Positions 12,099 through 59,576 of a stretch of DNA of 64,000 nucleotides are shown here, piece by piece (within the stretch, counting starts at the first letter, position 1; each line of letters starts with the position of its first letter). This DNA comes from an uncultured Bacteroidia bacterium (GTDB lineage: Bacteria > Bacteroidota > Bacteroidia > JAFLBG01), in assembly GCA_964593555.1 (NCBI GenBank), contig CAZQIC010000007.1:6226-70225 (forward strand), in the 5' to 3' direction. The position numbers and the translations under genes are program-made. A model generated the notes under the pieces. The model had not been told where the DNA came from. It worked only from the letters and a program-made list of their open reading frames with translations, and did not search any database.

Positions 12099-12119
12099 TA
12101 TCGGGGAATATTATACCTT

Positions 12120-12179
12120 CAAAAAAAGCATAAGCCCCATGAATTTTATAATAAAACTTGCTTTACAATTCTATTTCTA
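12120..12179 (-). promoter_or_regulatory. Copy E of the conserved promoter module (TAGAAATAGAATTGTA ... TTTTTTTG) upstream of the 1610-aa adhesin gene
   Basis: The minus-strand 16-mer matches the 57-61 kb consensus at 12/16 positions. TTA lies at offset 28-30 and TTTG at offset 56-59. The ATG is at offset 81, the same geometry as copies A-D. Confidence 0.45.
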
Positions 12180-12258
12180 AATCTATATACAATACGATTT
12201 TATGCCGAATTTGGCTCAAAAAGATAATCTATTTTTTTGTCTTTCTAAATCTACGCCC

Positions 12259-14517: not shown

Positions 14518-14741
14518 AAATTTGTTTCCTACAAACAAAAGGTATCGTTCGAATGATTACAAACTTCATTGCAATAGTTATTAACTATCTGACAATTTTA
14601 AATATAATAATTTACCAATGAAATTTGTTACAATTTATTAAACGTCTGATATGACAGTAATATTTTATATTCGGCATAAACTTCTCCTAAAACAATCTCT
14701 TGTTTTATTCAGCTATTCGCAAAAAGAGATGCAAGGAATAA

Positions 14742-17105
14742 CTACATTATCAATGTAACATTTCCTTTATATACACTATTCCTGCCTCGGACTTGTAGAT
14801 TAATTCTCCAGACGTAAACTCCGGTGGACGAAACAGCTTCTTTGCCGATTACTGTTCCATTCCAACCAACACTAACATCAAAAGTAGAAAACACCAAATT
14901 TCCCCAGCGGTTATAAATAAAAAGTTCATACAATTCAATATCCTGATCAAACAAGTGAGGAATAAAAATATCATTCGCGCCATCACCATTCGGACTAAAA
15001 ACATTAGGGATAAAAAATAGTTTTTCCCACCCAACCCTCACCCATTGCTCTGAGGTATCCATACATCCGTATTGATTCTCTATTATAAGTTGGATTTTAT
15101 ATGATCCCGTGTCACTATAAATGAATGTTGGATTCGTATTGGTAGACGAAGAATTTTGTGGATCATTAAAACTCCAGAACCATTTAATCGCATCAGTGGA
15201 TTGATCGGTAAAGACAACAGATTTATTTACAAAAACAGGATTGGGATTTATAGAAAACACCGCTACGGGCTGAGGTAAAGTATTAATTGCAATACCATAC
15301 ATAGCACTGCAATTATTCGCGTCATTTACTTGTACAATATAAATTCCAAATGCAAGGTCGGTTGCAATGTTATTCGTATACCCATTACTCCAGCTATAAG
15401 TATAAGGATATGTTGCGCCACTAAGCTGCAATGTTCCGGAGCCTGTACTATCTCCTAAACAATGTGTATCCGTTGAAGTTATTGTTGCACTTAACGCAGA
15501 TGGTTGAGTAATAGTTATTATTGATGTTGAAATACAAAATATTGAATCTGAAACCGTAATGGTATATACACCAGCACTCAATCCTGAAACCGCTGTTGTT
15601 GTCGCTGTGCCAACGGACCAACTATAACTATAGGGTGCGGTACCGGAATTTATCATCACCTGCGCAAAGCCATCATTACCGTTATTACATTTTACATTTG
15701 TTGAAATAGTATTTACCGCAAGCTGCTTAACTGTGATCGACTTGTAAAGTGTATCTGAGTTACAGGAATAATCCAAGATCACACTCACGGAAAATGTCCC
15801 GTCAGCAGAAAAAATGTGATTCGGGTTTACTCCCGTTGACGTATTTGCAACTCCACTCGCTACGTCACCAAAACTCCAGATATAAGACACATTAACGTTT
15901 GTGGGTGAAGAGCAATTATTCGCGGCTATTACAGGTGCTGTGAAACTCACATTCATACAGGTAACGGTTGCTGTTACCGGTGCAAGTACCGGCCTTGTAT
16001 AATATGAAACAAAATTTGGCAGGCCGAGTGATCCGTTCTTCCCATTTAATGAAACTCCATCATCAACGTAATTACACGCTACGCCCAAAGCATTGGGATT
16101 ATTGATCACTCCTAGCCAGGTCGTGTCAAGGCGCACCACATAAATCTTTCCATCCGGCCCCAATTGCATTGCACCTAGCCATTTAAATGAAGTAGCCACC
16201 TTAACAGTCGATGCTTTTATGGCATTGTTTGATCCTGCACACAAATTCCATTGGTAAATATCTCCGAGAGATATTACTGCTCCGTAAAATTTTGTTCCGT
16301 CCGGGGAAAACTCACAACCATAAGGCCCTTCTCCCGCGTTGGCAAATTGCTGTGGTAATAAAAGTGCATTACTCACCTGTCCTGTTGAATTATCAAAATC
16401 ATACAGTTCAATACGATTTTCGGGGTCATAGATCGCAGCAGCTAGTTTTTTTCCGTCAGGCGATGCCTTAAGTTGCCCTGCTACATAACCATAGCCTGTG
16501 ATACCGGTATGGCTGAGAACAGCAACAGCATTTACACCTGCGGAAGTAACCAAAAAACTTCTGAAGACAGCAGAGTCCATATCGTGAGTTATGATCCATA
16601 AATCCTTATTGTTGCAATGCCTCACTGCAAGTAATTTTTCTGTGGAACTTGCAAACAAAAAAATATTTTTATTCGCAGTGACCGCACCAAGGGAACCGCT
16701 CGCTGTCATATCTACCTCTGAATACCGGATACCATTGGGTTGCCCTAATTCATCAGCAGTAAAAATAAAATACCTTGTTGAGCTTCCCGGTTGCTGAAAA
16801 ATAACTGCAGATTGCGTTGCAGACCAATGTCCCAACAAGCCCGTTCCATTTGTCATTACCAAATGATTCCTGTTCCATACGGTATTCCCATCCGTATAAA
16901 AAAGTAAATTACCGGCAGCATCAGATATAGAAGCGCTCCCTTCATGCGTATTGCATTGCCCTGTTGTTAGTGCAACGGGCGTTCCGCCGCCAGGAAAATT
17001 TATGCCTGCATTATGACCAAAATACCAATTCCAGGATTCTCCCTGCGTGTACGCTGTTAATGAATACAAAGAAAAAAATAATATGAGTTTTGTTCTTTTA
17101 AACAT
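14742..17105 (-). CDS. T9SS type-B CTD protein: shared N-terminal propeller-like domain, PKD, two SprB-type repeats, PKD, type-B CTD
   Basis: The N-terminal domain (WNWYFGHNAGINF...HEGSASISDAAGNLLFYTDG) is paralogous to ORFs 5530 and 17133. SprB-type units begin CNNGNDG and CLGDSTG. The C-terminus is PNVFSPNGDGANDIF...YNRWGNLVF...GWNG...GVYVW. The track start is GTG; an ATG lies at 17105. Confidence 0.8.
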   Translation of the reverse strand: MFKRTKLILFFSLYSLTAYTQGESWNWYFGHNAGINFPGGGTPVALTTGQCNTHEGSASISDAAGNLLFYTDGNTVWNRNHLVMTNGTGLLGHWSATQSAVIFQQPGSSTRYFIFTADELGQPNGIRYSEVDMTASGSLGAVTANKNIFLFASSTEKLLAVRHCNNKDLWIITHDMDSAVFRSFLVTSAGVNAVAVLSHTGITGYGYVAGQLKASPDGKKLAAAIYDPENRIELYDFDNSTGQVSNALLLPQQFANAGEGPYGCEFSPDGTKFYGAVISLGDIYQWNLCAGSNNAIKASTVKVATSFKWLGAMQLGPDGKIYVVRLDTTWLGVINNPNALGVACNYVDDGVSLNGKNGSLGLPNFVSYYTRPVLAPVTATVTCMNVSFTAPVIAANNCSSPTNVNVSYIWSFGDVASGVANTSTGVNPNHIFSADGTFSVSVILDYSCNSDTLYKSITVKQLAVNTISTNVKCNNGNDGFAQVMINSGTAPYSYSWSVGTATTTAVSGLSAGVYTITVSDSIFCISTSIITITQPSALSATITSTDTHCLGDSTGSGTLQLSGATYPYTYSWSNGYTNNIATDLAFGIYIVQVNDANNCSAMYGIAINTLPQPVAVFSINPNPVFVNKSVVFTDQSTDAIKWFWSFNDPQNSSSTNTNPTFIYSDTGSYKIQLIIENQYGCMDTSEQWVRVGWEKLFFIPNVFSPNGDGANDIFIPHLFDQDIELYELFIYNRWGNLVFSTFDVSVGWNGTVIGKEAVSSTGVYVWRINLQVRGRNSVYKGNVTLIM

Positions 17106-17132
17106 TGCCACTCAAATAAAATAATAGAATAA

Positions 17133-20012
17133 TTACCTGATCAGGTTAACATGACCGGTGTAGTGATGTATATGTTGATTGCCATCTTCGGTATATAATT
17201 TCCAAACATAAACATCTTGCTGTGCAATTGCATTTCCCTCATTCGCCCTGCCATCCCAACCCACCAAAGGAGAATCAGAATGAAAAATAACCTCTCCCCA
17301 TCGATCGAATATATACAAGTCATATTCAGCGGCATCGATCCCCGCTACAACAGGGAAAAAAATATCATTCAATCCATCAGCATTGGGTGTGAATGTATTT
17401 GGGACATAAAAAACATAATCTGTCGTAACGGTAATCATATCGCTGTAAGAAGCGCTGCATCCAAATTCATTTATAACAGAAAGTGTTACCTGGTATGATC
17501 CGGTATCTGCAGAATAAGTAAAAGAAGGATGCTGAACAGACGACGAGGAATTGGCAATATCACCAAACGACCAGTTCCAAAAAGCAGCGCCTACCGATTG
17601 ATCCGTAAAATGCACAGTTGGATCAAGAATAGTCGCTGCATGGGGATTGAATACGAAGTATGCAACAGGATTGGGATACACTGTAATAAAATTATTTTTT
17701 GCCAATGTATTTGAACAACCATTATTGTCGGTTATTGTAAGCGAAACATTATACGAACCTGGAGTTGTATAACAATTAGATGGATTGCCTGCAATAGAAG
17801 TACTATCATTTCCAAAATCCCACACCGCGCTCCCGCTTAATGTGGTGTTTATAAAATTTACACATAAAGGGCCGCACCCTTCTGTATCGCTAGCTGAGAA
17901 TACTACCTCTGGCAAAGGATATACTGTAAGTGTTAATGTTTGTGTGTCCGATGGACATCCGTTTACATCCCTTACCATTACTGTATATACAGTGGTTACA
18001 GTCGGAGATACTATTATTGATGAAGTTGTTAAAGTGCCAGGGTTCCATAAATAATTGTATGGTGCGCCATTGCCTCCAACAGCAATAGTTTGTAAGGTAT
18101 CGTTTTGATTTTCGCAAATAGCAGTCGTTGGTGAAACAATATTTACAATAATCGGAGGTGGCTCTGTTATGGTTATTCCCGATAACACTGTACAACCATT
18201 CATATCGGTTATTTGAACAGAATAGGTACCAGCAATTAAATTAGTTGCGGTTTGCATATTTATTAATGCTGAATGACTCCATGAGTATGAATACGCAGTT
18301 ACACCTCCGGACGGAATAACAGTTACAGTTCCATCATTTTCTCCACTACATATTACATCCTGCTTTACTATGCTGGCTAAAAGTTGTAGCGGCTGAGTCA
18401 AGCTTGTTGTATCTGTTTTAGTACAGCCTTTTGAATCGGTTATGGTTACAGTATATTGGCCCGCAAACAAATTAGTTGCTGTGTTTCCTGCTTGTCCATT
18501 ACTCCAGCTATAAATGTATGGCGCATGAGGACCGGTGGCATTAACCGAAAGGGTACTGCTGCTTCCCCAACATGGAATTGATGTGCCAGATAAATTTATA
18601 ATCGGGGGGATAAAAACGTTTACCATTACTGTATCATAAATAGTATCGCATAAGTTATACGCGCGTAAAATATATTGAGTCGATGCAGGCGGAGATGCAA
18701 GTGGGTTAGAAATAGTTGGATTGCCTATACCTGTTGTTGGTGTCCAAATATAATTGAGTCCTGCAACAGGGGTTGAACCTATTTGAGCAGAAGTACTGAA
18801 ACATATACTTGTATCTCTTCCTGCAATTATTGTCTTTGGTGCAAAAATCTTTGCATCAAAATAATTGGGTAGCCCTGCCAAACCTGTCCTCCCTGCAAGA
18901 GATGTATAATTGAATTGCATATTAGGATTTGTATAATTATTCGGATTGTGAATTACTCCTAAAGAATCATTGTTTCTATAAACATGAGAAAAATAGATTT
19001 TACCATCCGGTGCCAACTGCATACCATATAAATAGGATCCTGGAAAGTCAGTAATTATTTCCGTTGGAGGAATGCTGGGCGCAAAGCGCTGATAACGAAA
19101 AATTTTTCCGACCTGGGTCGAACCACCAACTAAGGTACCACCTGCAATATATAAAACAGAATCATTAGGAGAAAAACTAGCGCCATAATGAGCTTGCATA
19201 TTGCCAGACAAAATACGCGCATTGCTAAGTTGCCCGGTTGCATTATCAAAATCATACAATTCATTTTTCCCATACATAAAGGCACTTAAAATTGCATCAC
19301 TATTATGAGATGCTTTTAAGTATCCGGTAAATGCCACTAAATTACCCGGACTAGTACTTCCGATAACTGTAATTACAGGATTGGCTGTATCAATACCATT
19401 GCAGGTAACCAAAAAAGCATAATATTTATTAGTGAACTGTTTTCGGGTAATGATCCAATAGTCAATTCCGTTAGCATGTTTTGCTGCGGTAACTTGCTCC
19501 CGGGTAGTATCAACAAGAGCACGGTTTTTAAAACCTCCAACTATATCACCAAGTCCTCCGTTTAATGTCATGTCAACCACAGAATAATTTAATCCATCCC
19601 ATGGCCCCTTAGGCCCTGCAGGCCTTCCCAATGGAGGCAAAGGCGTACTTGTTATTCCATCTGTTGTAAAAATGTAATATTTGTTTTTGTCTCCAACATA
19701 AGGAGTAATAATTGCTGATTGAGTAGAGCTCTGATCTCCCAACAATCCATTTCCATTCGGCATCACAACATGATTTTTATTCCAAACCTTCAGCCCATCA
19801 GTGTAAAAAAGCAAATTGCCTGCTACATCACAAATGGTGGCACATCCTTCAAAAGTATTTATCTGTCCGTTCAGCAATGGTACCGGTGGAGTACCTCCGC
19901 CGAAATTAAGTCCTGCGTTACCTCCAAAGTACCATATATCGGCTTGCTTCTGAGCAAGCAAAATGCCCGAGAAAATAAAACTGTAAAAAAAAATAAAAAC
20001 TGCTCTTTTCAA
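17133..20012 (-). CDS. T9SS type-B CTD protein: shared N-terminal propeller-like domain, SprB-type repeats, two PKD, type-B CTD
   Basis: 959-aa ORF. The only start that keeps the signal peptide is a TTG 8 nt after the stop of the upstream 1556-aa gene. It has the N-terminal motif WYFGGNAGLNF...FEGCATICDVAGNLLFYTDG. The C-terminal 260 aa or so are nearly identical to those of the upstream gene. Confidence 0.8.
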   Translation of the reverse strand: MKRAVFIFFYSFIFSGILLAQKQADIWYFGGNAGLNFGGGTPPVPLLNGQINTFEGCATICDVAGNLLFYTDGLKVWNKNHVVMPNGNGLLGDQSSTQSAIITPYVGDKNKYYIFTTDGITSTPLPPLGRPAGPKGPWDGLNYSVVDMTLNGGLGDIVGGFKNRALVDTTREQVTAAKHANGIDYWIITRKQFTNKYYAFLVTCNGIDTANPVITVIGSTSPGNLVAFTGYLKASHNSDAILSAFMYGKNELYDFDNATGQLSNARILSGNMQAHYGASFSPNDSVLYIAGGTLVGGSTQVGKIFRYQRFAPSIPPTEIITDFPGSYLYGMQLAPDGKIYFSHVYRNNDSLGVIHNPNNYTNPNMQFNYTSLAGRTGLAGLPNYFDAKIFAPKTIIAGRDTSICFSTSAQIGSTPVAGLNYIWTPTTGIGNPTISNPLASPPASTQYILRAYNLCDTIYDTVMVNVFIPPIINLSGTSIPCWGSSSTLSVNATGPHAPYIYSWSNGQAGNTATNLFAGQYTVTITDSKGCTKTDTTSLTQPLQLLASIVKQDVICSGENDGTVTVIPSGGVTAYSYSWSHSALINMQTATNLIAGTYSVQITDMNGCTVLSGITITEPPPIIVNIVSPTTAICENQNDTLQTIAVGGNGAPYNYLWNPGTLTTSSIIVSPTVTTVYTVMVRDVNGCPSDTQTLTLTVYPLPEVVFSASDTEGCGPLCVNFINTTLSGSAVWDFGNDSTSIAGNPSNCYTTPGSYNVSLTITDNNGCSNTLAKNNFITVYPNPVAYFVFNPHAATILDPTVHFTDQSVGAAFWNWSFGDIANSSSSVQHPSFTYSADTGSYQVTLSVINEFGCSASYSDMITVTTDYVFYVPNTFTPNADGLNDIFFPVVAGIDAAEYDLYIFDRWGEVIFHSDSPLVGWDGRANEGNAIAQQDVYVWKLYTEDGNQHIHHYTGHVNLIR

Positions 20013-20020
20013 GATTGTTA

Positions 20021-23000
20021 CTATCTAACTAATGAAACATGGCCTGTGTAATTGTGGCGTTTACCATTCACATCGTTTGTTAAAATTTTCCAAACATAAA
20101 CATCCTGCTGTGCAGTTGCGTTACCAACATTGGCTCTTCCATCCCATCCCACTATAGGAGAATCAGAATGAAAAATAATATCTCCCCATCGATCGAATAT
20201 ATACAAGTCATATTCAGTTCCATCTATCCCGGTCACAACCGGAGAAAAAATATCATTCAATCCATCTGCATTGGGCGTGAATGTATTGGGGATATAAAAT
20301 ATATAATCAGTTTTTATTGTAATTATATCACTATAAGAAGCTCTGCATCCAAATTCATTAATAACTGAAAGTGTTACCTGATATGATCCTGTATCTGAAG
20401 GATAGGTAAAAGAAGGATGCTGAACAGACGCTGATGAATTTGCAATATCACCAAACGACCAGTTCCAAAAAGCAGCGCCTACCGATTGATCCGTAAAATG
20501 CAATGTCGGATCAAGAATAGTCGCTGCATGGGGATTGAATATAAAGTGCGCAGCAGGATCAGGATGAACTGTAATAAAATTATTTTTTGTCAACGTATTT
20601 GAGCAGCCATTATTGTCAGTTATTGTAAGGGAAACATTATACGAACCCGTCTCAGTATAACAATTGGTCGGATTGTTGGTAAAAGAACTATTTCCATTTC
20701 CAAGATCCCACACAGCATTAATTGCAGAAGTTGTATTAGTAAAGTTTACACACAAGGGCCCGCATCCACTTTCATTATCAGCAACAAAAGAAACATCAGG
20801 CAATGGAAGTGTAGAAATTGATGCTGTACCGATACCTGAGCAACCATTGGCATCAACAACAGTTAATGTATATAGCCCGCCTGCAATTCCATTTGCGACA
20901 GGAGAATTTTGTCCCGAACTCCAGAAATAATTGTATCCCGGCATACCTCCTGTCACCGCCGAAGAAAGCTGTGTTGTTGCACCACTGCAAACCGAAGCCC
21001 CCGCAACATCAACACGAATAAGTGATGGTTCTGTTACCTGAACAGCCGATTGATGTGTACATCCATTTCCATCAGTAATTGTTATGTTATAATTTGAAGC
21101 AATTACGTTGTTAATGGAATTAGAATTATTTCCATTGCTCCAGCTATAGCTATAAGGAATCGTTCCACCAGAAATTATAATAGTTGCTGATCCACTGCTG
21201 CCGCCATTGCATAAAACCGATTGTGTATTAATAGTTGATGTAATAATTGCAGGCTCCGTAACTGTTATTGTGGTTGTTGACACACATCCATTCACATCAG
21301 TAACGGTGAGAGAATAAATTCCTGCAGCAAGACTGGAAACAGTGGATGTATTTAAGCTATTACTCCAGGAATAACTATATGGGGATGTACCGGAGCTTAC
21401 CATTGTGGCAATTGAACCCGTATTATTTCCAAAACAATTTACACTTGTTGTTGTTACTGCTATCGCAGGCAACCCGGTGTTTGACACCGTTATAGTTGCA
21501 TTTACAGAACATCCATTGCGATCGCTGATAGTGAGAGAGTAATTACCTGCTGTTATCCCCATTAATGATGCAGCTGTATTTCCATTGTTCCATAAATAGC
21601 TATAAGGACTGCTTCCCCCGGAAGGGACAACACCCGCAACACCATTCGCAACACCGCATGTTGCATCAGTGGTTATTGAATTTGGCACCAACTCAGATGG
21701 CTCAGTAATATTAACAGTCGCAATAGAAGTACAATTATTTGCGTCTGTTACTACAACAGAAAATGTTCCTGCAGTTAACCCGGTAGCAATAGAATTACTT
21801 TGTGGTGGATTTGTTTGCCATGAATAATTATATCCTGCAACTCCTCCCGTTACATTTGCCGAAGCCATACCATTATTGCCTCCTTTGCAAAGTATGCCGG
21901 ATATCTGTGGCGCAGTAACCGTTAGTAACGGTGGTTCAGTAATGTTAATTGCTTTAACAGCTGTACACCCATTTGCATCAGTAATTATCACGCTCCACGT
22001 TCCAACACTTAACGCAGTTGCTGTAACATTTTGCTGCACCGGCGAAGTCTGCCAGTTATAAGTATATGCTCCAGTTCCTCCCAATGCTGCTGCAGTGGCA
22101 GAACCTGTCTTGGCTCCATTACACGACAAATTTGTCTGCGCAGGAACAAATGCGAGTAATGGCAAAGGTGCTGTGATAATAAACGATGTTGTATCAATGG
22201 AACAATTCTGATCAGAAACAGTTGCTGTATATATTCCACTGGAAAGATTTGTTGCCGTCTGTGCAGATTGTCCATTACTCCAGGTATATAAATAAGGCGC
22301 GATTCCACCAACAACATTTATAGTCGCGGTTCCACCAGCAGAGCCAATACATTTTGTAGGTGTAACAGTGTTATTAAATAACATTGGCCGCGGAGTAAAC
22401 TTTGCGATCAAAGCATCGTCACTTCCAGCGCTACCCGCCTGGAAATACGCGCCGCTTCCCGGATTGGCAGTAGCACCACTTGACATTTTTCCTGTGACAA
22501 ATAAATTCCCTTTCAAATCCAATGCGAGGTTTTCTCCACACTCGTAACCAAATCCGCCAAATGTAGTTCCCCATTGCCATACACAATTATCATTAAAGCC
22601 AGCAACAAATGCATCCATATTACCACCGAAGCCTCCCTGGAAATATCCCCATCCGGGATTGTATGTAGGGAAACCTGCACCACCAACAAAACCTGTTACA
22701 TAAAAATTATCACAAGGATCGATACAAATACCGCGTGCAATATCCGCTCCTGTACCACCATAAAATGTTGACCACAACAACGTACCTGAATTGGTAAACT
22801 TTAACAATGCAACATCTCCTCTTAATGTACCACCTCCATATGTACTTTGAAAATACGCACCGCTACCCGGATTTAACAATGGAAAATCCAATGATGATGC
22901 TGATGCACCGACGACAAATACATCTCCCTTGCTATCAATTACCATATCTTCTGATCCGTCCATTTCTGATCCGCCCAAATATGTCGACCATACCATTGCA

Positions 23001-24691
23001 CCACTGTTATTGAATTTTGTAATGAACAAATCGCCAACCGATATCCAGCTGCCCAGCATTCCGCCGCCATTCATCGTTGATTGATAAAATGAAGAACCGC
23101 CTCCATTCATCAATGGAAAATTGGTTGAGTATGTTGGTCCGGTAATAAAAAGATTTCCCGCTGCATCCAAAGCAAGTGATTGACCAGAATCACCGCTGTT
23201 GCCACCTAAAAATGTTGACCACACACATGCTCCGGAATTGTTAAACTTTAAAATAAAAGCATCACCCGCAACATTTGATGAACCACCGCCAAATGCAGCC
23301 TGATTGTAGGCGCCTGCTAATGTTTGCAACGGAAAATTTATACGCCCTGCAAAACCGGTAACATAAATATTTCCGGCTGCGTCAGAGATAATATCAAATG
23401 CCCTGTCATAAGTTGTACTTCCGTAATAGGTAGCCCAAAGCCTGGTACCCGTATTAGAGAATTTTATAATACATATATCAGCAATGCCAACTGCGCCGGT
23501 ATTGGTGTTTTTATTGTATGCTCCTGCAAGTATTTGTGTTGGAAAATTACTGGAACTTGATGAACCTGTAACATAGACATTCCCAGCCGGGTCAGTAGTA
23601 ATTGCTTCCGCCCTGTCATCGTTATCCCCACCGTAATACGTTGCCCATTGACGCACTCCATTATTATTAAACTTCACAATAAAAATATCTACAGTGCCGG
23701 TACTTGTTCCCTGATAATGTGTTCCTGCATTAAGTGTTGGAAAAGTTGTAGAGTTGGTATATCCTGTAATGAAAACATTTCCCATTTTATCTGTCGCAAT
23801 TGCATTTGCGCCATCAAGTCCGCTGCCACCATAGCATGTCGACCATTTCAATTGAAGCGGAGGATCGATCACAACTTCTTCTGAAGTATTATAATCTTCA
23901 AGCTGAAATGAAACTTCTTTGTTTTTTACAATATACTCTGAATGGATTTTATTTTGATAACCACCCTGGTAGCTATAAAGGGCTCCTTCCTGTAACACGC
24001 CATTCTCTGTAGTTATTTTCACACTATTGCTTTCTTTTAATGACTCGAGACCAGTTGCGCCATCATAATTCATTTTTATCAATGATGGGTTGGCACCGGG
24101 ATGTAAAATAAAATTGTGTTTTATATTGTTGTCGCCATCACAAATAAATTCCCAATCGATATTTGGATAGATGTTTTTGATTGTTACTTTTTTGTATGTC
24201 TTTACACCAATTATTCCCTGTGGGCAGTGGCCTAAAAAATAATTTACTTCACCGTCATCCACCTGTTCTTCTTTAACAACATTTGACAGTTGAATATCTG
24301 ATCCCGCCAAACTCACATCTACCCTGCTCCATGAATATTTTTTCTCTTTACCAATTGTGCTACTGATCAAACTCTCCACTTCTGTTTCCTCTTTTTCAAT
24401 TGCTTTCATAAAAACATAGGTAAGCCCCTTATCAGTAATATAAAGATCCATGCCAGGCTTTGAGTTTTTGAAAAAAACCTGTTGAATTAAATTTCCCTGG
24501 TCGTCGATGAGTTGCCCTTTATTTTCAGTAAAACCATTTGCAACTTCATTGTCCTTTATTTGTTCTTTTACTTCATTCGCCAATTGAGCATGATTACCTG
24601 CATAAGTATGGCTGTAATAGAATGTGAGAGCACAAACAAGACAAGCTAGCTTATAAAAAAAATATTGGGAGGAGGATTTTTTCTGTTTCAC
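20021..24691 (-). CDS. Giant adhesin-like T9SS type-B cargo (SBBP repeats, six SprB-type repeats, two PKD, type-B CTD)
   Basis: 1556-aa ORF with a GTG start (GTG AAA CAG AAA AAA) and no in-frame ATG before the signal peptide. It carries an FTENKGQL motif and SBBP units (WATYYGG..DR...I..D.AGN.YVTG). SprB units begin CIGSAGG, CNGAKTG, CKGGNNG, CGVANG, CFGNNTG and CNGGSSG. The C-terminus is PNTFTPNADGLNDIF...FDRWGDIIF...GWDG...DVYVWK. Confidence 0.85.
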   Translation of the reverse strand: MKQKKSSSQYFFYKLACLVCALTFYYSHTYAGNHAQLANEVKEQIKDNEVANGFTENKGQLIDDQGNLIQQVFFKNSKPGMDLYITDKGLTYVFMKAIEKEETEVESLISSTIGKEKKYSWSRVDVSLAGSDIQLSNVVKEEQVDDGEVNYFLGHCPQGIIGVKTYKKVTIKNIYPNIDWEFICDGDNNIKHNFILHPGANPSLIKMNYDGATGLESLKESNSVKITTENGVLQEGALYSYQGGYQNKIHSEYIVKNKEVSFQLEDYNTSEEVVIDPPLQLKWSTCYGGSGLDGANAIATDKMGNVFITGYTNSTTFPTLNAGTHYQGTSTGTVDIFIVKFNNNGVRQWATYYGGDNDDRAEAITTDPAGNVYVTGSSSSSNFPTQILAGAYNKNTNTGAVGIADICIIKFSNTGTRLWATYYGSTTYDRAFDIISDAAGNIYVTGFAGRINFPLQTLAGAYNQAAFGGGSSNVAGDAFILKFNNSGACVWSTFLGGNSGDSGQSLALDAAGNLFITGPTYSTNFPLMNGGGSSFYQSTMNGGGMLGSWISVGDLFITKFNNSGAMVWSTYLGGSEMDGSEDMVIDSKGDVFVVGASASSLDFPLLNPGSGAYFQSTYGGGTLRGDVALLKFTNSGTLLWSTFYGGTGADIARGICIDPCDNFYVTGFVGGAGFPTYNPGWGYFQGGFGGNMDAFVAGFNDNCVWQWGTTFGGFGYECGENLALDLKGNLFVTGKMSSGATANPGSGAYFQAGSAGSDDALIAKFTPRPMLFNNTVTPTKCIGSAGGTATINVVGGIAPYLYTWSNGQSAQTATNLSSGIYTATVSDQNCSIDTTSFIITAPLPLLAFVPAQTNLSCNGAKTGSATAAALGGTGAYTYNWQTSPVQQNVTATALSVGTWSVIITDANGCTAVKAINITEPPLLTVTAPQISGILCKGGNNGMASANVTGGVAGYNYSWQTNPPQSNSIATGLTAGTFSVVVTDANNCTSIATVNITEPSELVPNSITTDATCGVANGVAGVVPSGGSSPYSYLWNNGNTAASLMGITAGNYSLTISDRNGCSVNATITVSNTGLPAIAVTTTSVNCFGNNTGSIATMVSSGTSPYSYSWSNSLNTSTVSSLAAGIYSLTVTDVNGCVSTTTITVTEPAIITSTINTQSVLCNGGSSGSATIIISGGTIPYSYSWSNGNNSNSINNVIASNYNITITDGNGCTHQSAVQVTEPSLIRVDVAGASVCSGATTQLSSAVTGGMPGYNYFWSSGQNSPVANGIAGGLYTLTVVDANGCSGIGTASISTLPLPDVSFVADNESGCGPLCVNFTNTTSAINAVWDLGNGNSSFTNNPTNCYTETGSYNVSLTITDNNGCSNTLTKNNFITVHPDPAAHFIFNPHAATILDPTLHFTDQSVGAAFWNWSFGDIANSSASVQHPSFTYPSDTGSYQVTLSVINEFGCRASYSDIITIKTDYIFYIPNTFTPNADGLNDIFSPVVTGIDGTEYDLYIFDRWGDIIFHSDSPIVGWDGRANVGNATAQQDVYVWKILTNDVNGKRHNYTGHVSLVR
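21026..22378 (-). repeat. Six tandem SprB-type Cys repeats (coding) inside the 1556-aa gene
   Basis: Residues about 772-1222 by residue count; periodicity about 75 aa. Confidence 0.75.
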
Positions 24692-24872
24692 GCTTAGTTT
24701 TTTTTATTAACTTTTTTTAACTTGATTTGCATACTTTACTGATATTTCAAATCTAACAGGAGAGTGGTTTTGTTACAATTGAAACGCATATTAAAATAAC
24801 ATCCGCAAATTAAATTTTTATCTGTAAATTATTGATTTTCAATATTTTACGTAAAACAAAATAATACGCTAC

Positions 24873-26402
24873 ATGAACGATGACAAATTATTTTTGTTGA
24901 TCCATTCACTTACTAAGGCCGAGAAAGTGCACCTGAAAAAGTATCATCTCACTTCTTCATTAAAATCAGACAGCAAGCACACCATTTTATACACGCTGCT
25001 GGATAAGATGCAGGAGTATGATGATGAAAAAATTCATGAAAAACTAAAAGCTAAAGTGAACATGAAATTTTTACCTCAGCTTAAAAAACTCTTACATAAT
25101 ATCATTATAAAATCACTGATAGAATACAATCAAACAATTTCAATCGATAACCAGTTAAGCAGCTTATTAATGGAAGCTGATATTTTAAGTCGAAAATTGC
25201 TTTATAAAGATTTACTTAAAACATTGAATAAGGCAGAGACACTTGCACTTACTCATGAAAAATACAGTCAGCTGACACAGATCATTGATCTGAAAAAGAA
25301 AAATTTCTTTTCTACCGCTGATGAAAAACTCTCACCAGGGGATTGGAAACAGCTTGAAGAACAGGAAAGGGAGATCGCGGAAAAAATAAAAAATAAGCAT
25401 TTGTATGAACACATTTTATACGATTGTTTTTGGTGCCTGAATGCCGGTATGACTATTAATAAGACAGAAGCACTCAAAAAAATTGCATCGCTTAAAACCA
25501 GTAATTACCTAAAAGACAGCAGCCTTGCTCTTACTACCGAAGCCCGCTATGCTTTTTATCAGAGTAATATGATGCTTGCACTTCACGATAACGATCATCG
25601 TTTATATTATGACTATATAGAAAAAATAATTTCTCTTTTAGAAAAAAACAAATTGCTGCTTACCGAAAAACCATATGGTTATTTGGATATGCTAGCGAAC
25701 CGGGCAAACGCCTCATCCTTTTTACAAAAAGATGAAGTATTTTTTGAAACCATTAAGAAGATTCGCTCTTTTCCATCAACAATTCCGGAAGCGGATATTC
25801 CCCTTGTAAATATGCGCGTGTTTTGTTACGCGGAAGGCATGGAGTTTTTTTATTTGTGCAAGAATGGATATTTCAAAAAAGCGTTGGAGCAATTACCACA
25901 GTTGATCAAGGGGTTAAACACATTTAAAACTCAATTGGATACGGCCAACAAAAAAATATTCCGTCATATCATTTCGCTCGTTTATTTTTCCAATGGCAGG
26001 TTTAAGGAAGCACTCATATGGCAGAACATTCTCATTAATGAAGAAAATACGACTGCCCTACGGTACGATATTGATGTGATCACAAGACTGCTGAACATTA
26101 TTGTTCATTGCGAACTCAACAACTGGGAATTGGTCCCCGGATTAGTTAAAGCATATAAAAAACACATTGAGAATACCGGCCATAAATATGAAATGGTATT
26201 GGTGATAATAAAACATTTGGAGTCCCTGATAATTAACGGAGAGAATCTTTATAAGGAAAAAAGATTTTTTACTGCCCTTGCTGAAAAGCTAAACCCCATC
26301 CTACAAGATCCCGCTGAAAAGAGAATGTTAAATACATTTAATGCAGCATGGTGGTTAGAAAGTAAAATTAAGGAAACAACTATGGAGAATGCATCAAAAT
26401 AA
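24873..26402 (+). CDS. Helical (TPR-like) protein of unknown function, paralog 1 of 3
   Basis: 509-aa ORF with ATG start, no signal peptide and helix-rich composition. It shares the N-terminal LFLLIHSLTKAEKVHLKKY motif and the C-terminal DPAEKRML..FNAAWWLESKI motif with ORFs 31913 and 57772. It is divergent from the 1556-aa adhesin gene. Confidence 0.7.
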   Translation: MNDDKLFLLIHSLTKAEKVHLKKYHLTSSLKSDSKHTILYTLLDKMQEYDDEKIHEKLKAKVNMKFLPQLKKLLHNIIIKSLIEYNQTISIDNQLSSLLMEADILSRKLLYKDLLKTLNKAETLALTHEKYSQLTQIIDLKKKNFFSTADEKLSPGDWKQLEEQEREIAEKIKNKHLYEHILYDCFWCLNAGMTINKTEALKKIASLKTSNYLKDSSLALTTEARYAFYQSNMMLALHDNDHRLYYDYIEKIISLLEKNKLLLTEKPYGYLDMLANRANASSFLQKDEVFFETIKKIRSFPSTIPEADIPLVNMRVFCYAEGMEFFYLCKNGYFKKALEQLPQLIKGLNTFKTQLDTANKKIFRHIISLVYFSNGRFKEALIWQNILINEENTTALRYDIDVITRLLNIIVHCELNNWELVPGLVKAYKKHIENTGHKYEMVLVIIKHLESLIINGENLYKEKRFFTALAEKLNPILQDPAEKRMLNTFNAAWWLESKIKETTMENASK

Positions 26403-26476
26403 AATCCTGATGCGTCTCCCTCGTTTAATCAAACAATTTAAAAATAGAATCCCCCCCCCATTTAAAATGAGAGACG

Positions 26477-26785
26477 CTATTGTTCATCAACCTGCGCCAC
26501 TGCCGCTTGCTTTTTAACACAATCGGGACACATGTCAATGGCTGTTTGATCGTTGCGGGAATTACCTTTACAAATACCAACATGTCGAGCTTTTGTCCAT
26601 GTTCCACTCAGATCATCCAAAACAGTTTGCGGTGAACATCTTAACGATGTCAGACATCCGGAAATCAAAAATGTTCCTGCTGCAGCCTGAACCTCACCCT
26701 GAATAGTCAGTTTTTCCTGATCACTAATGGTGGTAATAAAACTTTTTACTTCAATATGGTCCAATGTTAGTTTATTCTTTTTCAT
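26477..26785 (-). CDS. Leader-peptide-like small protein (102 aa, 5 Cys in the C-terminal part)
   Basis: The N-terminus (MKKNKLTLDHIEVKSFITTISDQEKLTIQGEVQAAAG) is Lys-rich, carries the L.L...I.VKSFIT motif and ends at a Gly/Ala junction. It is convergent with paralog 1 and lies downstream of the 1635-aa gene on the same strand. Whether it is coding is not proven. Confidence 0.5.
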   Translation of the reverse strand: MKKNKLTLDHIEVKSFITTISDQEKLTIQGEVQAAAGTFLISGCLTSLRCSPQTVLDDLSGTWTKARHVGICKGNSRNDQTAIDMCPDCVKKQAAVAQVDEQ

Positions 26786-26917
26786 GTGACTTTTTATTTT
26801 CTATTTATAAACTTTATTAGTGCAATTTATAGCTTGTGAGTCGTGACGCCAAGACAAAAAATCTCCTTTATTAATAGTCTGATTCTGTTTTGATAAAAAT
26901 TAATTCGAAAATAATTT

Positions 26918-29900
26918 TCAACGCAACAAATTTACATGGCCTACATATCTGTGTTTGTTATTGAGCACATCAACCAGGTTCAACTTCCAAACGTATACAT
27001 CCTGCTGTACAATTGTTCCATTTATTGTTCCGTCCCAGCCCTGCCTGGGATTTGTTATTTTGTAAATTAAATCGCCCCAACGATTGTATATCAATAACTC
27101 ATAATTTTCTACATCTACCCCTACGCCCATTGGAATAAAAATATCATTCTTACTGTCGCCATTAGGAGTAAATGTATTAGGGACATAGATCACATAATCC
27201 GGATCTATTTTTATTATCTCAGAAACAGTTGCTTCACAACCAAACTCGTTAGTAACTGTGAGAAGCACCTCATAGCTTCCGGTATTGCTATATGTGTAGC
27301 TTGGGTTTTGTAATAATGATGCGGATCCTGTTACATCGCCAAAGTTCCATTGCCAAGCAGTTGCACCTGTTGACAGATCAGTAAAATAAATAGTAGGATT
27401 AAGAATTGTTGCTGGTTGTGGCGATGCAGAAAAGTTTGCTATCGGATTGGGATGGACCGTAATATAATTGTTTTGTGTTATTGTATTTGAACAACCGTTA
27501 TTATCCGTAACTCTCAATGTAATATTATAACTACCCGAGTCTGTAAAACAATAATTAGCAGGGGAAACATTAGATGTAGCAAGGTTATTTCCAAAATACC
27601 AGGTTAAAGAATTTGTATTTGGGGTGGCATTTATAAAATTAACACAAAGCGGTCCACAGCCCGAAACTTTATCAGCAGAAAAATTCACATTGGGCAATGC
27701 ATAAACATCAACTGAAGAACTTGCGACAGACGAACAACCTTTGCTATCGGTTATGGTTACGGTATAAATTGTTTGATTATTCACAGTAACAGTAATTGAT
27801 TGCGCAATAGCATTATTGTTCCACAAATAATTATACCCCGGATTTCCGCCTGTAGCTCCGGCTGTAATAATCGCTTGTGAGCCCATACAAACAATTTGCG
27901 CGCCGGATATGTTTGCAACAACTTGTGTCGGCTCATTAATAATTATATTATTTATTTCCTTGGTACATCCATTAGCATCGGTTACAGTAACACTATAAAC
28001 TCCTTGCAATAAATTGTTTGTTTGGAGACTTGGAGAATTATTACTCCACAAATAAGTATATGCTCCTGTTCCACCATTAGCTATAACTGAGGCGCTACCA
28101 CTATTTTCCCCAAAACAATTTGCATCAACAGTATTTACAACACCCGATATTGCGGAAGGTTGCGTTATGGTAACACTCGCTGTTGAATTACACCCATCTG
28201 CATCAGAAATTGTTACAGTATAACCAGACGCACATAACCCATTGGCTCCGGCAGTGTTTTGTCCATTCGTCCAACTGTAATTGTAAGGACCATTACCTCC
28301 AACTGCAACAGCATTGGCTGTGCCATCACATAAGGCATTGCAGCTTGTATTATTTGTTACATTCGCTTGTGCAACTACTCCATTTAAATTATTAATACTT
28401 ACTACATCAATAGCAGTACATCCGTTTGCATCAGTTATGGTTACAGTATAAACACCTTGTGCAATATTATTGTTCAATGCTGATACGACTCCATTACTCC
28501 ATAAATAATTATAAGCCGGTGTTCCTCCATTCACAATAATATTTGCCGAGCCATTCGCCTGGTTGCAATGTGCATCAACAGTTGCAGTGTTAGTTATTAT
28601 TGCGTTGGGTTCCAAAATATTAATATTTCCATTTGCAGTACATCCATTTCCATCAGTAATAGTAACTGAATAAATTCCAGCTACCAATGAAGTTGCGTGA
28701 GCATTTACTTGTTGGTTGCTCCATACATAATTGTAATTCCCAACTCCCCCGTTGCCAACAGATGTCGCGCTTCCGGTTGCGGTTGAATTACAAAGCGCAT
28801 CCGCACCAATAATATTCACTCCAATCTGCGTAGGCTCTGGAACGCTTACTGGTAAAGTAATTGCAACGCATCCATAGTTATCGGTAACCGTAACTGTGTA
28901 ATTTCCGCTTTGAAGATTTGATGCAGAAATTGTATTACTACCATTACTCCAAGAGAAAGTATACGGTTGGGTCCCGCCATTCGAAAACGCATTAGCAACC
29001 CCATTATTTCCGCCATAACAGGAAACAGAATTTGACAACACAGCGTTAGCTGTTAATAAAGGTGGTTCAGTTACACTAACTGTCGCTGTTGAAACACAAC
29101 TATTATTATCTGTTACTGTTACAGTGTAAACAGTATTCGGGCTAAACCCTGTTGAAGATGAAGTAATACTTCCGTTGCTCCAAGCATAACCAAAAGGTCC
29201 ATTCCCAAATGAGCCTACGGTAGCTCCACCATTATTTAATCCAAAACAAGTTATATTGTCTACTACAGTTATAACTGCCAATGGAGAACTAGCTGTTATG
29301 TAATTAACCATAGTAATTGAGTCTGTACCACAAGGCGTTTTAACAACCAATTTTACATTGTATGATCCGTTATTAGCATATGATATGCCAGTTGGGTTTT
29401 GTAATGTTGAACTCGTTACTACTGCACCCGGAAAACTCCAAAACCATTTAGCGCTATCATCATCGCAAAGCACACTCAAATCAGTAAAATTAATTGGGGC
29501 ATTTCTACAAGGCGTTTGATCAGATACAGAAAATGCCGGCGCAACAGTATTGTTTCCACAGCTAAAACCACAAATACTAAACACAACAGCATCAAATGAT
29601 CCGCCGCCAAATGCAGTTTGGTCTGCACCCCCTGTAACAGGGAATCCGGGCTTCACTCCGCCCGTTCCGTATAGTGTGTAATTATCAGGGCCAAGCGCTA
29701 TTGGATGTCCAACAAATAATCCACCAACTCCCGGCCTGTCCTCATGGCCGGGTCCACCAATGTATGTATCGCATATTGGCACACCAGTAGAGTTATCAAA
29801 TTTACTTATACCAAAATCTTCTCGGTTAACTGTGGTACTTGCATTTTGTTGTTGATAAGAACACGATGTAATATTAGGCAATGCATCATCGTACACTCCT

Positions 29901-31789
29901 GTCATCATATATACTATGTCATTTTTTTTGTCTATTGTAACGCCATACCCTTCAATCGGGTTAATTCCTTTATAATAACATGTAGACCATATCATGCTCC
30001 CATTTGTTCTGTCCAATTTTGTTAAATATGCTGTTGCAATTGAAGCACGTGATGTTAGATAAGCTCCTGCCGTAGTAGGAAAAGCTGGCACGCTTTGTCC
30101 CGCGAAGGCATTAATTATGATACCCGTAACAGTAGCATCCCCAACCTGATTAGTTGCAACACCTAAACCATACACCGATCCGCCGCCTCCGAGATATGTT
30201 GCCCAAATTCTTGCACCTGCTCCACTTAGTTTTACAATTGTAGCGTTGCCATTTCCTGCCATTGCAGGTTGAGCGTTACCGGGTGTAGTTGGGAAAGTCA
30301 GTGACGTAGTGCGTCCAACAATAACAACATTGTCAGAGGCATCAACATCCAGGTCAGCAACTTCCTCTAAACTTAGTGTCGCGCTTCCATTTGCATGATT
30401 ACCTCCTCCTCCATAATATGTTGACCATACCACCGAGGTGCCGGTGCTATTTATTCTAAAAATTAATTCATCAGCGCTTCCGCCGCCAAAAACAGGTTGA
30501 AAAGCACCTGCTGTTGTAGGAAAAGTATTTGCACCATATCCACCTACAACAACATCCCCGTTACTGAATAATCCAATACAAGTTCCCTTTTCTAAAGCAG
30601 CACCTCCATAGTATGTTGACCATACTCTCGCTCCTGTATTAGAAAATTTAGCGACCACAATATCTTCATTTCCACCAAGTACAAATTGAATGGCTCCTGC
30701 TGTTGCCATCCCTGTTGATGCAAAACTTCCAACAAAATAAGTTTCTCCAGCAGCATTTGTAACCACATCATAACCATAATCAGCTCCTATCCCGCCAAAA
30801 TATGTAGAATAAATAAGTGCGCCTGTAGTACCGTTAAATTTGGAAATAAAAGCATCTGAGTTTCCGCCAAATACATTTTGGAATGGCCCGGCGGAAAGAG
30901 GAAAATTTGGAGATACACATTGACCCGTAATCACAACATCTCCGTTGGAAGAAGTAGAAATTCCGGAACCAATATCTGCTGCGCCGCCTCCGACAAATGT
31001 TGTCCAGGGATCGATCACTAATGTGAAATCCCTGTTATAATCAAAAACATTAAAACCAATAGTTGTTCCATCAATATCGGTATCCAGCAATTTATAACTG
31101 CATTTTACATCAATAATTTTTCCATCAATATTCTGATACACCCTCGGCATTTTTTCTTCAATTTCACCTATGCTGGTTGTTATCTTAATACTATTTTCTT
31201 TTACCTCCAATTGATCTGCACCCTTATAATGCAAACGTATAACGCGTGGGTCTCCCTTCGGTAAAATAATAAAATCATACTTGATTGAATTATTTGCACC
31301 ACCTGAATAGGTAACATCAATATTGTTATAAATACCTTTTACCGTAAGCCCGTTGAATGCTTTAACATTTAATAATCCATCCCGATTTTTTTCATTATAG
31401 TAATTATAGATGCCGGAATTCCCCGCAGTGTATTCAATCCTGGAATTTACATTTGCGTTTAAAAATTCAACATTCACTCTATGGCCATTCAAAAATTCTT
31501 TGCTCCCTAACTCCATTTCGTCCTCAACTTCCTTGGTTTTTTGTATGAGCACCATACTGATGCCCGTATTTCTCACGAAAAAATATCCTCCTTCAAGTTT
31601 TGTAAAACATTGAACTTCGGGCACGATGTTTCCTTCTGCATCCTCAAGTTGTCCTTTGTTTTCTATAAATAAAGGCGAATTTTTTTGAGATGGGCTTAAA
31701 GCAGAAGTGCCTGCGAAAAATGAAGAATGAAAGAACAATACGAGTACGACTACTAAATAATATTTTGAGGGGATGCATGGAGTTTTCAT
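26918..31789 (-). CDS. Giant adhesin-like T9SS type-B cargo (SBBP repeats, PKD, six SprB-type repeats, two PKD, type-B CTD)
   Basis: ORF 26918..31825 opens on TTG; the ATG at 31789 gives MKTPCIPSKYYLVVVLVLFF. It carries an FIENKGQL motif, SBBP units, a PKD domain (WFWSFPG) and SprB units beginning CFGLNNG, CYGGNNG, CNSTATG, CNQANG, CNALCDG and CFGENSG. The C-terminus is PNTFTPNGDSKNDIF...YNRWGDLIY...GWDG...DVYVWK. Confidence 0.85.
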   Translation of the reverse strand: MKTPCIPSKYYLVVVLVLFFHSSFFAGTSALSPSQKNSPLFIENKGQLEDAEGNIVPEVQCFTKLEGGYFFVRNTGISMVLIQKTKEVEDEMELGSKEFLNGHRVNVEFLNANVNSRIEYTAGNSGIYNYYNEKNRDGLLNVKAFNGLTVKGIYNNIDVTYSGGANNSIKYDFIILPKGDPRVIRLHYKGADQLEVKENSIKITTSIGEIEEKMPRVYQNIDGKIIDVKCSYKLLDTDIDGTTIGFNVFDYNRDFTLVIDPWTTFVGGGAADIGSGISTSSNGDVVITGQCVSPNFPLSAGPFQNVFGGNSDAFISKFNGTTGALIYSTYFGGIGADYGYDVVTNAAGETYFVGSFASTGMATAGAIQFVLGGNEDIVVAKFSNTGARVWSTYYGGAALEKGTCIGLFSNGDVVVGGYGANTFPTTAGAFQPVFGGGSADELIFRINSTGTSVVWSTYYGGGGNHANGSATLSLEEVADLDVDASDNVVIVGRTTSLTFPTTPGNAQPAMAGNGNATIVKLSGAGARIWATYLGGGGSVYGLGVATNQVGDATVTGIIINAFAGQSVPAFPTTAGAYLTSRASIATAYLTKLDRTNGSMIWSTCYYKGINPIEGYGVTIDKKNDIVYMMTGVYDDALPNITSCSYQQQNASTTVNREDFGISKFDNSTGVPICDTYIGGPGHEDRPGVGGLFVGHPIALGPDNYTLYGTGGVKPGFPVTGGADQTAFGGGSFDAVVFSICGFSCGNNTVAPAFSVSDQTPCRNAPINFTDLSVLCDDDSAKWFWSFPGAVVTSSTLQNPTGISYANNGSYNVKLVVKTPCGTDSITMVNYITASSPLAVITVVDNITCFGLNNGGATVGSFGNGPFGYAWSNGSITSSSTGFSPNTVYTVTVTDNNSCVSTATVSVTEPPLLTANAVLSNSVSCYGGNNGVANAFSNGGTQPYTFSWSNGSNTISASNLQSGNYTVTVTDNYGCVAITLPVSVPEPTQIGVNIIGADALCNSTATGSATSVGNGGVGNYNYVWSNQQVNAHATSLVAGIYSVTITDGNGCTANGNINILEPNAIITNTATVDAHCNQANGSANIIVNGGTPAYNYLWSNGVVSALNNNIAQGVYTVTITDANGCTAIDVVSINNLNGVVAQANVTNNTSCNALCDGTANAVAVGGNGPYNYSWTNGQNTAGANGLCASGYTVTISDADGCNSTASVTITQPSAISGVVNTVDANCFGENSGSASVIANGGTGAYTYLWSNNSPSLQTNNLLQGVYSVTVTDANGCTKEINNIIINEPTQVVANISGAQIVCMGSQAIITAGATGGNPGYNYLWNNNAIAQSITVTVNNQTIYTVTITDSKGCSSVASSSVDVYALPNVNFSADKVSGCGPLCVNFINATPNTNSLTWYFGNNLATSNVSPANYCFTDSGSYNITLRVTDNNGCSNTITQNNYITVHPNPIANFSASPQPATILNPTIYFTDLSTGATAWQWNFGDVTGSASLLQNPSYTYSNTGSYEVLLTVTNEFGCEATVSEIIKIDPDYVIYVPNTFTPNGDSKNDIFIPMGVGVDVENYELLIYNRWGDLIYKITNPRQGWDGTINGTIVQQDVYVWKLNLVDVLNNKHRYVGHVNLLR
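27926..29278 (-). repeat. Six tandem SprB-type Cys repeats (coding) inside the 1635-aa gene
   Basis: Residues about 850-1300 by residue count. Confidence 0.75.
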
Positions 31790-31912
31790 ACCACCTAACT
31801 TATTCAATACCCTAACATGGTTCAAGTAACTTTTACAACTTTATTAATTATCTGTCTGAAGAATAATTATAGTAATTGCCATTTTTGAAATAAAAAGCTT
31901 ATTTTTGATTAA

Positions 31913-33454
31913 ATGTCTGATACCCACAAAACTGATCTTTTTGAACTCATCAAGTCGATGACTATGAGTGAAAAACGTTATTTCAAACTATTCGCTGCTC
32001 GTCACACCATTGGTAAAAAAAATAATTACATCCGCCTGTTCGAAGCCGTAGAAAAACAAAAAACATATGACGAAAAAAAACTAATACAAACAGAAAATTA
32101 TTTAAGCCAATTCGCCGTAATCAAAAAAAATCTTTATGATACTGTTTTAAAAAGCCTGGATGCCTTCAACTACCACATCTCAGAAGAAAGAGAGGTAATG
32201 AACACAATAAACCAAATACAAATTTTGTACAACAAAGGCCTTTACAAACAATGCGAAAAATTGGTTGTGAATACAATTGTAAAAGCTAAGCAACTTGATT
32301 TGCTTAAACTTCAATACATTCTGAATGAATGGCAATTAAAACTAATCGTAGCACAAGATCGGTTCAACACGGATGAAAAAAATATTGTTTCAGTGGAAAT
32401 GGATAAGGAGCAAATACAAACACTGCTTATACAACAGGAAGAATATAGGTTCACCAATATAAAACTACACCATAAAATAAGAATATCCGCCGTATTACGG
32501 AACGACCAAACCAGGAAACAGATAGAAACCATTTTTAGTAAAATTTCAAAAAAAACCACGCCTCCATCTCATAATTTTGTAAGTTGTTTCTACTATTACA
32601 ATATTCATTACCTATACCATTATTCATTCACACGCTTTACAGAAGCTTACCATTATATAAACAAAGCGCATTCGCTGTTCGAAGAGCATCCCGCGCAAAA
32701 AAATGAATGTAACGACATGTTCATCAATACTATTTTTAACAAAATTTCTGTAGAGAATAATTTAAGAACGTTTGAGGAGGCATTAAAGTCGGTAAAATAT
32801 TTAAAGACTTTGGAAATAAGGAACACTCCCCTTAAAAATTCTCTTTTTTTTCGTACCGTTATTTATGAACTATCTATCTATTGCCTTTCTATCGATTTTA
32901 ATACTGGATATAAAAGAATAAAAGAGCTTGAGCGGTTTTTCGCATCATCCGAACTTGACTCGGCGAACATCTCTACTTGGTACGTTGTACATTACCAGGC
33001 AGCGTTTTTATGCATTGGCGCTGAACAATTTAAAATGGCAAACAAATTTTTAAATAAAATTGTTAATCGGCCAACGCAGACCGACAGCCGTACTGATATC
33101 GTTTGTTATTCAAAGATATTGTTGCTGCTCTCTCATTACGAACAAGGAAGCACAGATCACCTGGAATACGCAGTCAAATCTGTTTACCGTTTCCTCCTAA
33201 AGAAAGACATGTTATTTGCATTTGAAAAAGCGATTCTTAAGTTCATTAAAAAAATGCCAACACTTGACTCAAAAGACCTTACCATAAAGGCCTTTAAAAG
33301 GTTGAAGAATGAGTTGGAGGATATAATGAAAGACCCCTATGAGCGTGGGGCAATGGAATATTTCGACTTTATTTCCTGGCTCGAAAGTAAAATTTACAAA
33401 CGTCCATTTAATGAATTGATCAAAGAAAAAATCAAGAGTGGAGAATACTCATAA
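31913..33454 (+). CDS. Helical (TPR-like) protein of unknown function, paralog 2 of 3
   Basis: 513-aa ORF with ATG start. It has the N-terminal LFELIKSMTMSEKRYFKLF motif and the C-terminal DPYERGAMEYFDFISWLESKI motif. It is divergent from the 1635-aa adhesin gene across an 87-nt spacer. Confidence 0.7.
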   Translation: MSDTHKTDLFELIKSMTMSEKRYFKLFAARHTIGKKNNYIRLFEAVEKQKTYDEKKLIQTENYLSQFAVIKKNLYDTVLKSLDAFNYHISEEREVMNTINQIQILYNKGLYKQCEKLVVNTIVKAKQLDLLKLQYILNEWQLKLIVAQDRFNTDEKNIVSVEMDKEQIQTLLIQQEEYRFTNIKLHHKIRISAVLRNDQTRKQIETIFSKISKKTTPPSHNFVSCFYYYNIHYLYHYSFTRFTEAYHYINKAHSLFEEHPAQKNECNDMFINTIFNKISVENNLRTFEEALKSVKYLKTLEIRNTPLKNSLFFRTVIYELSIYCLSIDFNTGYKRIKELERFFASSELDSANISTWYVVHYQAAFLCIGAEQFKMANKFLNKIVNRPTQTDSRTDIVCYSKILLLLSHYEQGSTDHLEYAVKSVYRFLLKKDMLFAFEKAILKFIKKMPTLDSKDLTIKAFKRLKNELEDIMKDPYERGAMEYFDFISWLESKIYKRPFNELIKEKIKSGEYS

Positions 33455-57270: not shown

Positions 57271-57546
57271 ATGGAAGCGAAAAAAAAGATAAAGCTACAA
57301 GAACTGAAAACACAAAGTTTTATAACTAGTCTTGACAAATCAAAAAGTGAAACTATCAATGGTGCAGGAGGAGGTGCAGTAAACACTCAAGATAATTGCT
57401 ACCATACTGACTGGACTTGTTGGAGTGACATAAATGGTAATGGCCAAATTGATGGATATGAGCCATTTATATCCAAAATGGTTAGTGATTTTGGTCTTTG
57501 TTTACCTCTTGAAATAATTTACAATTCAATGGTAGGATATAATTAA
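57271..57546 (+). CDS. Leader-peptide-like small protein (91 aa, 3 Cys)
   Basis: The N-terminus (MEAKKKIKLQELKTQSFITSLDKSKSETINGAGGG) shares the KL..L.(V/T)(K/Q)SFIT motif and a Gly-rich junction with ORF 26477..26785. It is preceded by promoter module A and is convergent with helical paralog 3. Confidence 0.6.
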   Translation: MEAKKKIKLQELKTQSFITSLDKSKSETINGAGGGAVNTQDNCYHTDWTCWSDINGNGQIDGYEPFISKMVSDFGLCLPLEIIYNSMVGYN

Positions 57547-59286: not shown

Positions 59287-59287
59287 T

Positions 59288-59347
59288 TAGAAATACAATT
59301 TATGATTATTTAAAGTTACTATTTTATTTTATATCGCTATAATTTTA
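59288..59347 (+). promoter_or_regulatory. Promoter module copy B (TAGAAATACAATTTAT-N12-TTACT-N19-TAATTTTA)
   Basis: The 16-mer is identical to copies A and C. The ATG of a 56-aa ORF is at offset 78. Confidence 0.55.
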
Positions 59348-59365
59348 CCAAAATCACATGCGCAA

Positions 59366-59536
59366 ATGAAAAACAAATTTGAAATTTTTAAAAAAATCGG
59401 ATTTCACTATTGTAAAAAAGATATGGAGAAGATTACTGGACAAATGTTCATGCCATTTATGCCGATGCCAAGAATCACACCCTCCATCGGCCATCTCAAT
59501 ATGACCAATTCAGAACCCCAGTTAGTCCCTGGATAG
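59366..59536 (+). CDS. Unannotated 56-aa ORF (below the ORF-track cutoff)
   Basis: It encodes MKNKFEIFKKIGFHYCKKDMEKITGQMFMPFMPMPRITPSIGHLNMTNSEPQLVPG. Its ATG sits at the same distance from module B as the verified starts sit from modules A, C, D and E. Confidence 0.4.
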   Translation: MKNKFEIFKKIGFHYCKKDMEKITGQMFMPFMPMPRITPSIGHLNMTNSEPQLVPG

Positions 59537-59576
59537 CCAGTGAAAATGATTAAAACAAACCTTTTCAACTCTCAAT

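Follow-up and report, generated by a model that had tools for sequence, protein, structure and literature searches.

Expression of genes for type IX secretion (T9SS) is known to respond to the PorX/PorY two-component system and the ECF sigma factor SigP (Porphyromonas), which are global regulators of the secretion machinery. To our knowledge, the T9SS regulators described so far are global ones of this kind only, and a literature search returned no description of cargo-linked TPR regulators for T9SS.

The characterised relative of the proteins analysed here is RusR (BT2802) of B. thetaiotaomicron. A deletion mutant no longer grows on ribose and retains roughly 10% of rus induction as measured by qRT-PCR; RusR is not itself induced, has no similarity to classical PUL regulators and answers to a ribose-derived cue for which ribokinases are needed (bioRxiv 10.1101/574913). 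Transposon mutants in BT2802 have a fitness of −4.3 on ribose (PMC8121099), and the RusR iModulon comprises BT2803-09 (PMC12596196). On the strength of genetics, not biochemistry, RusR regulates the adjacent rus operon positively.

In the window, a stretch of 64,000 nucleotides from an uncultured Bacteroidia bacterium, three RusR-superfamily TPR-like proteins are encoded within 35 kb: paralog A (24873..26402, plus strand, 509 aa), paralog B (31913..33454, plus strand, 513 aa) and paralog C (57772..59286, minus strand, 504 aa), all with an ATG start. In BLASTP comparisons, A and B share 22% identity over their full length (E 2e-13), B and C 27% over their full length (E 1e-40), and A matches C with an E value of 9e-16, a similarity well beyond chance that, at the level of sequence, marks them as genuine paralogs. 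Their three-way alignment holds invariant positions at both ends, namely L6, L9, I10, S12, T14, E17, K18 and K22 at the N terminus and P480, E482, F489, W494, E496 and K498 at the C terminus (A numbering). The ORF list, BLASTP and this alignment bear out the reading frames, lengths, paralogy and two terminal motifs given in a preliminary description of this DNA. An ortholog of A with 90% identity is present in locus L081 and B has orthologs with 62% and 58% identity, the latter in the syntenic locus L079; for C, the database held no further protein at E ≤ 1e-40.

That description could assign no family, but all three proteins match, over their full length, the NCBIfam model NF058569 ('BT2802 family ribose utilization protein'), with E values of 4.9e-31 for A (108.3 bits), 5.5e-40 for B (137.8 bits) and 9.1e-47 for C (160.2 bits). 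The alignments are colinear and run end to end along the 502 positions of the model (residues 4-505 of A on model positions 5-499, 7-502 of B on 5-501 and 5-500 of C on 4-496). As these scores of 108-160 bits lie far below the curated cutoff of 550 bits, profile matching places A, B and C as distant members of the RusR superfamily, not as RusR orthologs. This superfamily encompasses 6,370 clusters at 50% identity (E ≤ 1e-30) and is uniform in length, with the best 150 of 11,438 matches measuring 493-530 aa and carrying one matched stretch each; Pfam holds no model for it. Functional evidence for the superfamily comes from one distant homolog, RusR.

A, B and C resemble RusR in their length of about 500 aa, in having no signal peptide (their highest 19-residue Kyte-Doolittle mean is at most 1.24), in being unlike the classical PUL regulators and in lying directly upstream of their supposed targets. 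Whereas RusR adjoins ribokinases, SusC/D and a permease, none of these ribose-utilisation genes was found beside the three paralogs, whose neighbours are T9SS adhesins and other cargo, holB, pinensin-leader peptides and a hexapeptide transferase, and which occur as three copies within a short distance.

The AlphaFold model of B has 28 helices and no strands (pLDDT 89.5, pTM 0.84), and the central build of the family protein is confidently predicted to be a TPR-like superhelix; the all-helical model and the hydropathy values agree with the helix-rich, signal-peptide-free and TPR-like proteins proposed earlier. Residues 1-88 form a conserved N-terminal domain of five helices (pLDDT 82). Mean pairwise identity along the protein is 47% over residues 1-88 and 52% over residues 471-500, compared to 24-33% between them, and the positions invariant over 60 family members (L12, E20, K21, K71, L74, F484 and W489, B numbering) follow the same ends, a distribution of conserved termini around a variable middle that is typical of sensor-plus-output regulators. 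A winged HTH had been suggested for the N terminus, but the model of residues 1-88 found no fold match in the PDB by Foldseek (best E 4.5), its profile found none among PDB sequences (best E 0.11), and neither Pfam nor NCBIfam placed an HTH family in A, B or C. The superfamily as a whole is structurally uncharacterised, with no solved structure, and its putative output domain matches no known fold.

Each of the three paralogs faces a T9SS cargo gene with a C-terminal sorting domain detected by Pfam. A is divergent from adhesin 1 (20021..24691, minus strand), a giant cargo protein of 1556 aa with DUF7948, SBBP, SprB, PKD and CHU_C domains (CHU_C E 2.2e-11). Behind adhesin 1 lies an array of five more T9SS cargo genes (5530..20012, minus strand), each with CHU_C or Por_Secre_tail; judged by spacing alone, adhesin 1 and the first two genes of the array (gaps of 8 and 21 nt) may form an operon. 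B is divergent from adhesin 2 (26918..31825, minus strand), also giant, with DUF7948, SprB, PKD and CHU_C domains (CHU_C E 7.8e-14), the true start of which is likely the ATG at 31789. Pfam domains and minus-strand ORFs thus agree with the earlier view that A and B are transcribed away from giant SBBP/SprB adhesins. For C, said to be divergent from module-B/D genes, the divergence holds, but the cargo gene that it faces had been missed: a repeat-rich T9SS type-A protein of 522 aa with a signal peptide and a Por_Secre_tail domain (59662..61230, plus strand, E 1.9e-12), which is present as a gene call in L080. The gene that follows this cargo (61460..62083) carries a sub-threshold Por_Secre_tail match, at 22.4 bits against a cutoff of 23.

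The intergenic region between adhesin 1 and A (24692..24872, 181 nt), a candidate control region, contains a putative -7-like box, TAGATTTG, at 24748-24755 on the minus strand and, as putative elements, a tandem 19-nt direct repeat (CGCAWATTAAA...) at 24785-24822 and the palindrome TTTTACGTAAAA, read directly in the sequence. That between adhesin 2 and B (31790..31912, about 123 nt) is partly conserved with L079 and has a -7 box, TATTTTTG, at 31900-31907 on the plus strand as well as GTCTGAA at 31854-31860, which in other family loci is a strand-specific element upstream of the family genes themselves. The region between C and its cargo gene (59287..59661, 375 nt), inside which the source contig annotation calls no gene, has one exact CGCAAATGAAA at 59361. 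Across family intergenic regions, the operator search returned enriched k-mers that were merely AT-rich and no family-wide operator, and an EM motif search returned the ordinary Bacteroidota -7 box alone, at a null-level score.

We then considered 78 loci in other genomes, sampled through the 80 best matches to B. In 72 of these 78 loci, the family gene has a divergently transcribed gene on its upstream side, with a median gap of 202 nt, and 39 of the 72 divergent neighbours carry Por_Secre_tail or CHU_C according to Pfam, compared to 15 of 150 random non-adjacent genes from the same loci (Fisher p = 3e-12). A second count, made with HMMs built from the CTDs of the window's own proteins, identified cargo at 38 of 72 upstream divergent positions (53%), 11 of 78 downstream positions (14%) and 33 of 615 background genes (5%). 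After clustering at 60% identity, cargo remains in 20 of 34. The 40 loci closest to B come from Saprospiraceae, Ignavibacteria and unclassified Bacteroidia, and cargo accounts for 33 of their 39 divergent neighbours. Over the sampled loci, the architectures of the facing cargo are varied (SprB/SBBP, Y_Y_Y, FG-GAP, BNR and fn3). The divergent arrangement with T9SS cargo reported for the window is, in other words, conserved and enriched elsewhere. As the sample was picked by match to B, the link to cargo in part reflects a single subfamily and does not amount to 72 independent events. Other family members are divergent from ilv/leu-type (HMGL-like), hemA and ribose loci, as expected of a versatile family of local regulators.

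Regulator and adhesin are also inherited together. In L079, the B ortholog with 58% identity faces an adhesin that is 49% identical to adhesin 2 over its full length (1425 bits) but just 35% identical to adhesin 1 (770 bits), and this regulator-adhesin module occupies a different genome position from that in the window. Close relatives either carry the peptide gene, adhesin 2 and B together, as one 7-kb block, or lack all three. By these comparisons, a regulator and its own adhesin travel together when the module moves.

With the RusR homology, the fold, the conserved divergent cargo pairing and the regulator-adhesin co-inheritance established, we infer that the paralogs control transcription of their neighbours, together with the sign of that control and the presence of a signal. 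We consider it probable that each of the three paralogs is a RusR-like regulator specific to its locus and governs transcription of the T9SS cargo gene that it faces. They would be cytoplasmic one-component regulators in which the variable central TPR-like superhelix senses a signal and the 88-residue, five-helix N-terminal domain, together with the conserved C-terminal helix motif, acts as the output module. Each copy would control its head-to-head cargo gene from the shared intergenic region of 120-375 nt, probably by activation in analogy with RusR: A would act on the SprB-type adhesin 1, and probably on the cargo genes packed right behind it, B on adhesin 2 and C on the type-A CTD repeat protein. 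The N-terminal domain might bind DNA directly, as a new fold, or act through RNA polymerase or another factor. The full-length homology to RusR, which is genetically needed for its adjacent operon, supports the idea of a locus-specific regulator that had been raised from the sequence.

Regulators of this kind would resemble those of the LysR type in standing head-to-head with their target over a short control region and in occurring as numerous paralogs in a genome, every one linked to a single locus, but they have an unrelated fold that includes neither a winged HTH nor a periplasmic-binding-protein-like effector domain. Like PorX/PorY and SigP, they would act on T9SS-related gene expression; unlike these, they are unrelated in sequence, specific to a cargo locus and encoded beside individual cargo genes.

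The preliminary description also drew a parallel to the RRNPP receptors of Firmicutes and phages (Rap, NprR, PlcR, PrgX, Rgg and AimR), in which case the TPR domain would bind a mature peptide from an adjacent small gene and thereby switch the regulator. A cytoplasmic protein with a small helical N-terminal domain followed by a TPR superhelix fits such a picture, and small peptide genes do lie at two of the window loci. One (26477..26785, minus strand, 102 aa) is convergent with A and follows adhesin 2, which has the same orientation, and the other (57271..57546, plus strand, 91 aa) is convergent with C, is called as a gene in L080 and follows a putative -7-like box, TAATTTTG, at 57243-57250. 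The two are related to each other and both exceed the curated cutoff of 24 bits for NF038180, the pinensin-family lanthipeptide leader (30.1 and 36.7 bits), as does a leader near the B ortholog in L079 (29.4 bits). The two window peptides, however, have leaders of the RiPP type, as opposed to Sec or PptAB-type pro-peptides, and long cores of 60-70 aa that are rich in Cys, and they are convergent with the paralogs instead of sharing an operon. No lanthipeptide dehydratase or cyclase domain was found among the window ORFs scanned. The adjacency is not conserved either: none of the other 78 loci of the family has an NF038180-type leader, holB comes immediately after the 90%-identical A ortholog, where a peptide gene is absent, and B itself has no adjacent peptide gene in the window. 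Foldseek places pLS20 Rap (6t46, E 1.5e-3), RapI (4i1a, TM 0.57 on the target), phage phi105 Rap and NprR among the top matches of the full-length model, but these are weak, all with E > 1e-3 and TM 0.35-0.57, and interspersed with TPR proteins of a generic kind (LGN, Rpn6, APC and KLC among them). A, B and C have no sequence-level match to RRNPP receptors and no XRE-type HTH, are about 140 residues longer than Rap and belong to a family of the Bacteroidota/Ignavibacteriota lineage. The cue of RusR, moreover, is ribose-derived and ribokinase-dependent (bioRxiv 10.1101/574913). Overall, quorum-sensing receptors of the RRNPP kind are quite unlikely here.

Two further readings dispense with control of the facing gene. 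TPR superhelices are classic protein-binding scaffolds, and close pairing with just one cargo gene, with which the protein is co-inherited, would also suit cytoplasmic chaperones or adaptors that hold or target giant T9SS cargo and have no role in transcription, as had likewise been proposed. T9SS cargo, however, passes the inner membrane through Sec, with recognition via the CTD taking place in the periplasm, and we know of no place for a dedicated cytoplasmic chaperone in this pathway. Many family members adjoin genes for cytoplasmic enzymes (the HMGL-like enzyme of the ilv/leu cluster, hemA and the rus ribokinases), with which this idea fits poorly. Head-to-head divergence is a typical arrangement for regulators; a chaperone gene usually shares a transcript with that of its client. 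RusR, the characterised member, alters transcript levels (bioRxiv 10.1101/574913). We regard a chaperone function as very unlikely. Alternatively, the proteins could regulate other targets, or themselves, and have come to lie beside cargo through insertion of mobile or duplicated cassettes. The loci are indeed highly plastic, as the 7-kb presence/absence unit and the differing module positions in relatives illustrate, and the element upstream of family genes could mean mere autoregulation; yet the enrichment concerns the upstream divergent position specifically, the pairing holds over phylum-level distances and unrelated cargo architectures, and a regulator stays with its particular adhesin when the module moves, which makes this explanation unlikely.

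Beyond regulation of the facing cargo genes, a broader view can be offered tentatively: the RusR superfamily could possibly be a major, so far unrecognised group of one-component transcription factors in Bacteroidota and Ignavibacteriota, with its N-terminal 88 residues as a new DNA- or RNA-polymerase-binding fold and with one large branch acting as cis-encoded on/off switches for single T9SS adhesin or cargo genes, in this microbial-mat lineage perhaps wired to RiPP-like peptides. A very large regulator family would have in RusR its first member to be studied, and RusR would not be an oddity of one gut PUL. If true, locus-specific control by A, B and C would add a new mode of regulation for type IX secretion cargo, and, should they act as switches, a cell could choose which of its many giant adhesins to display. 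A regulator placed head-to-head with single cargo genes offers a testable handle on adhesin choice among SprB-type paralogs in gliding and surface-attached Bacteroidota.

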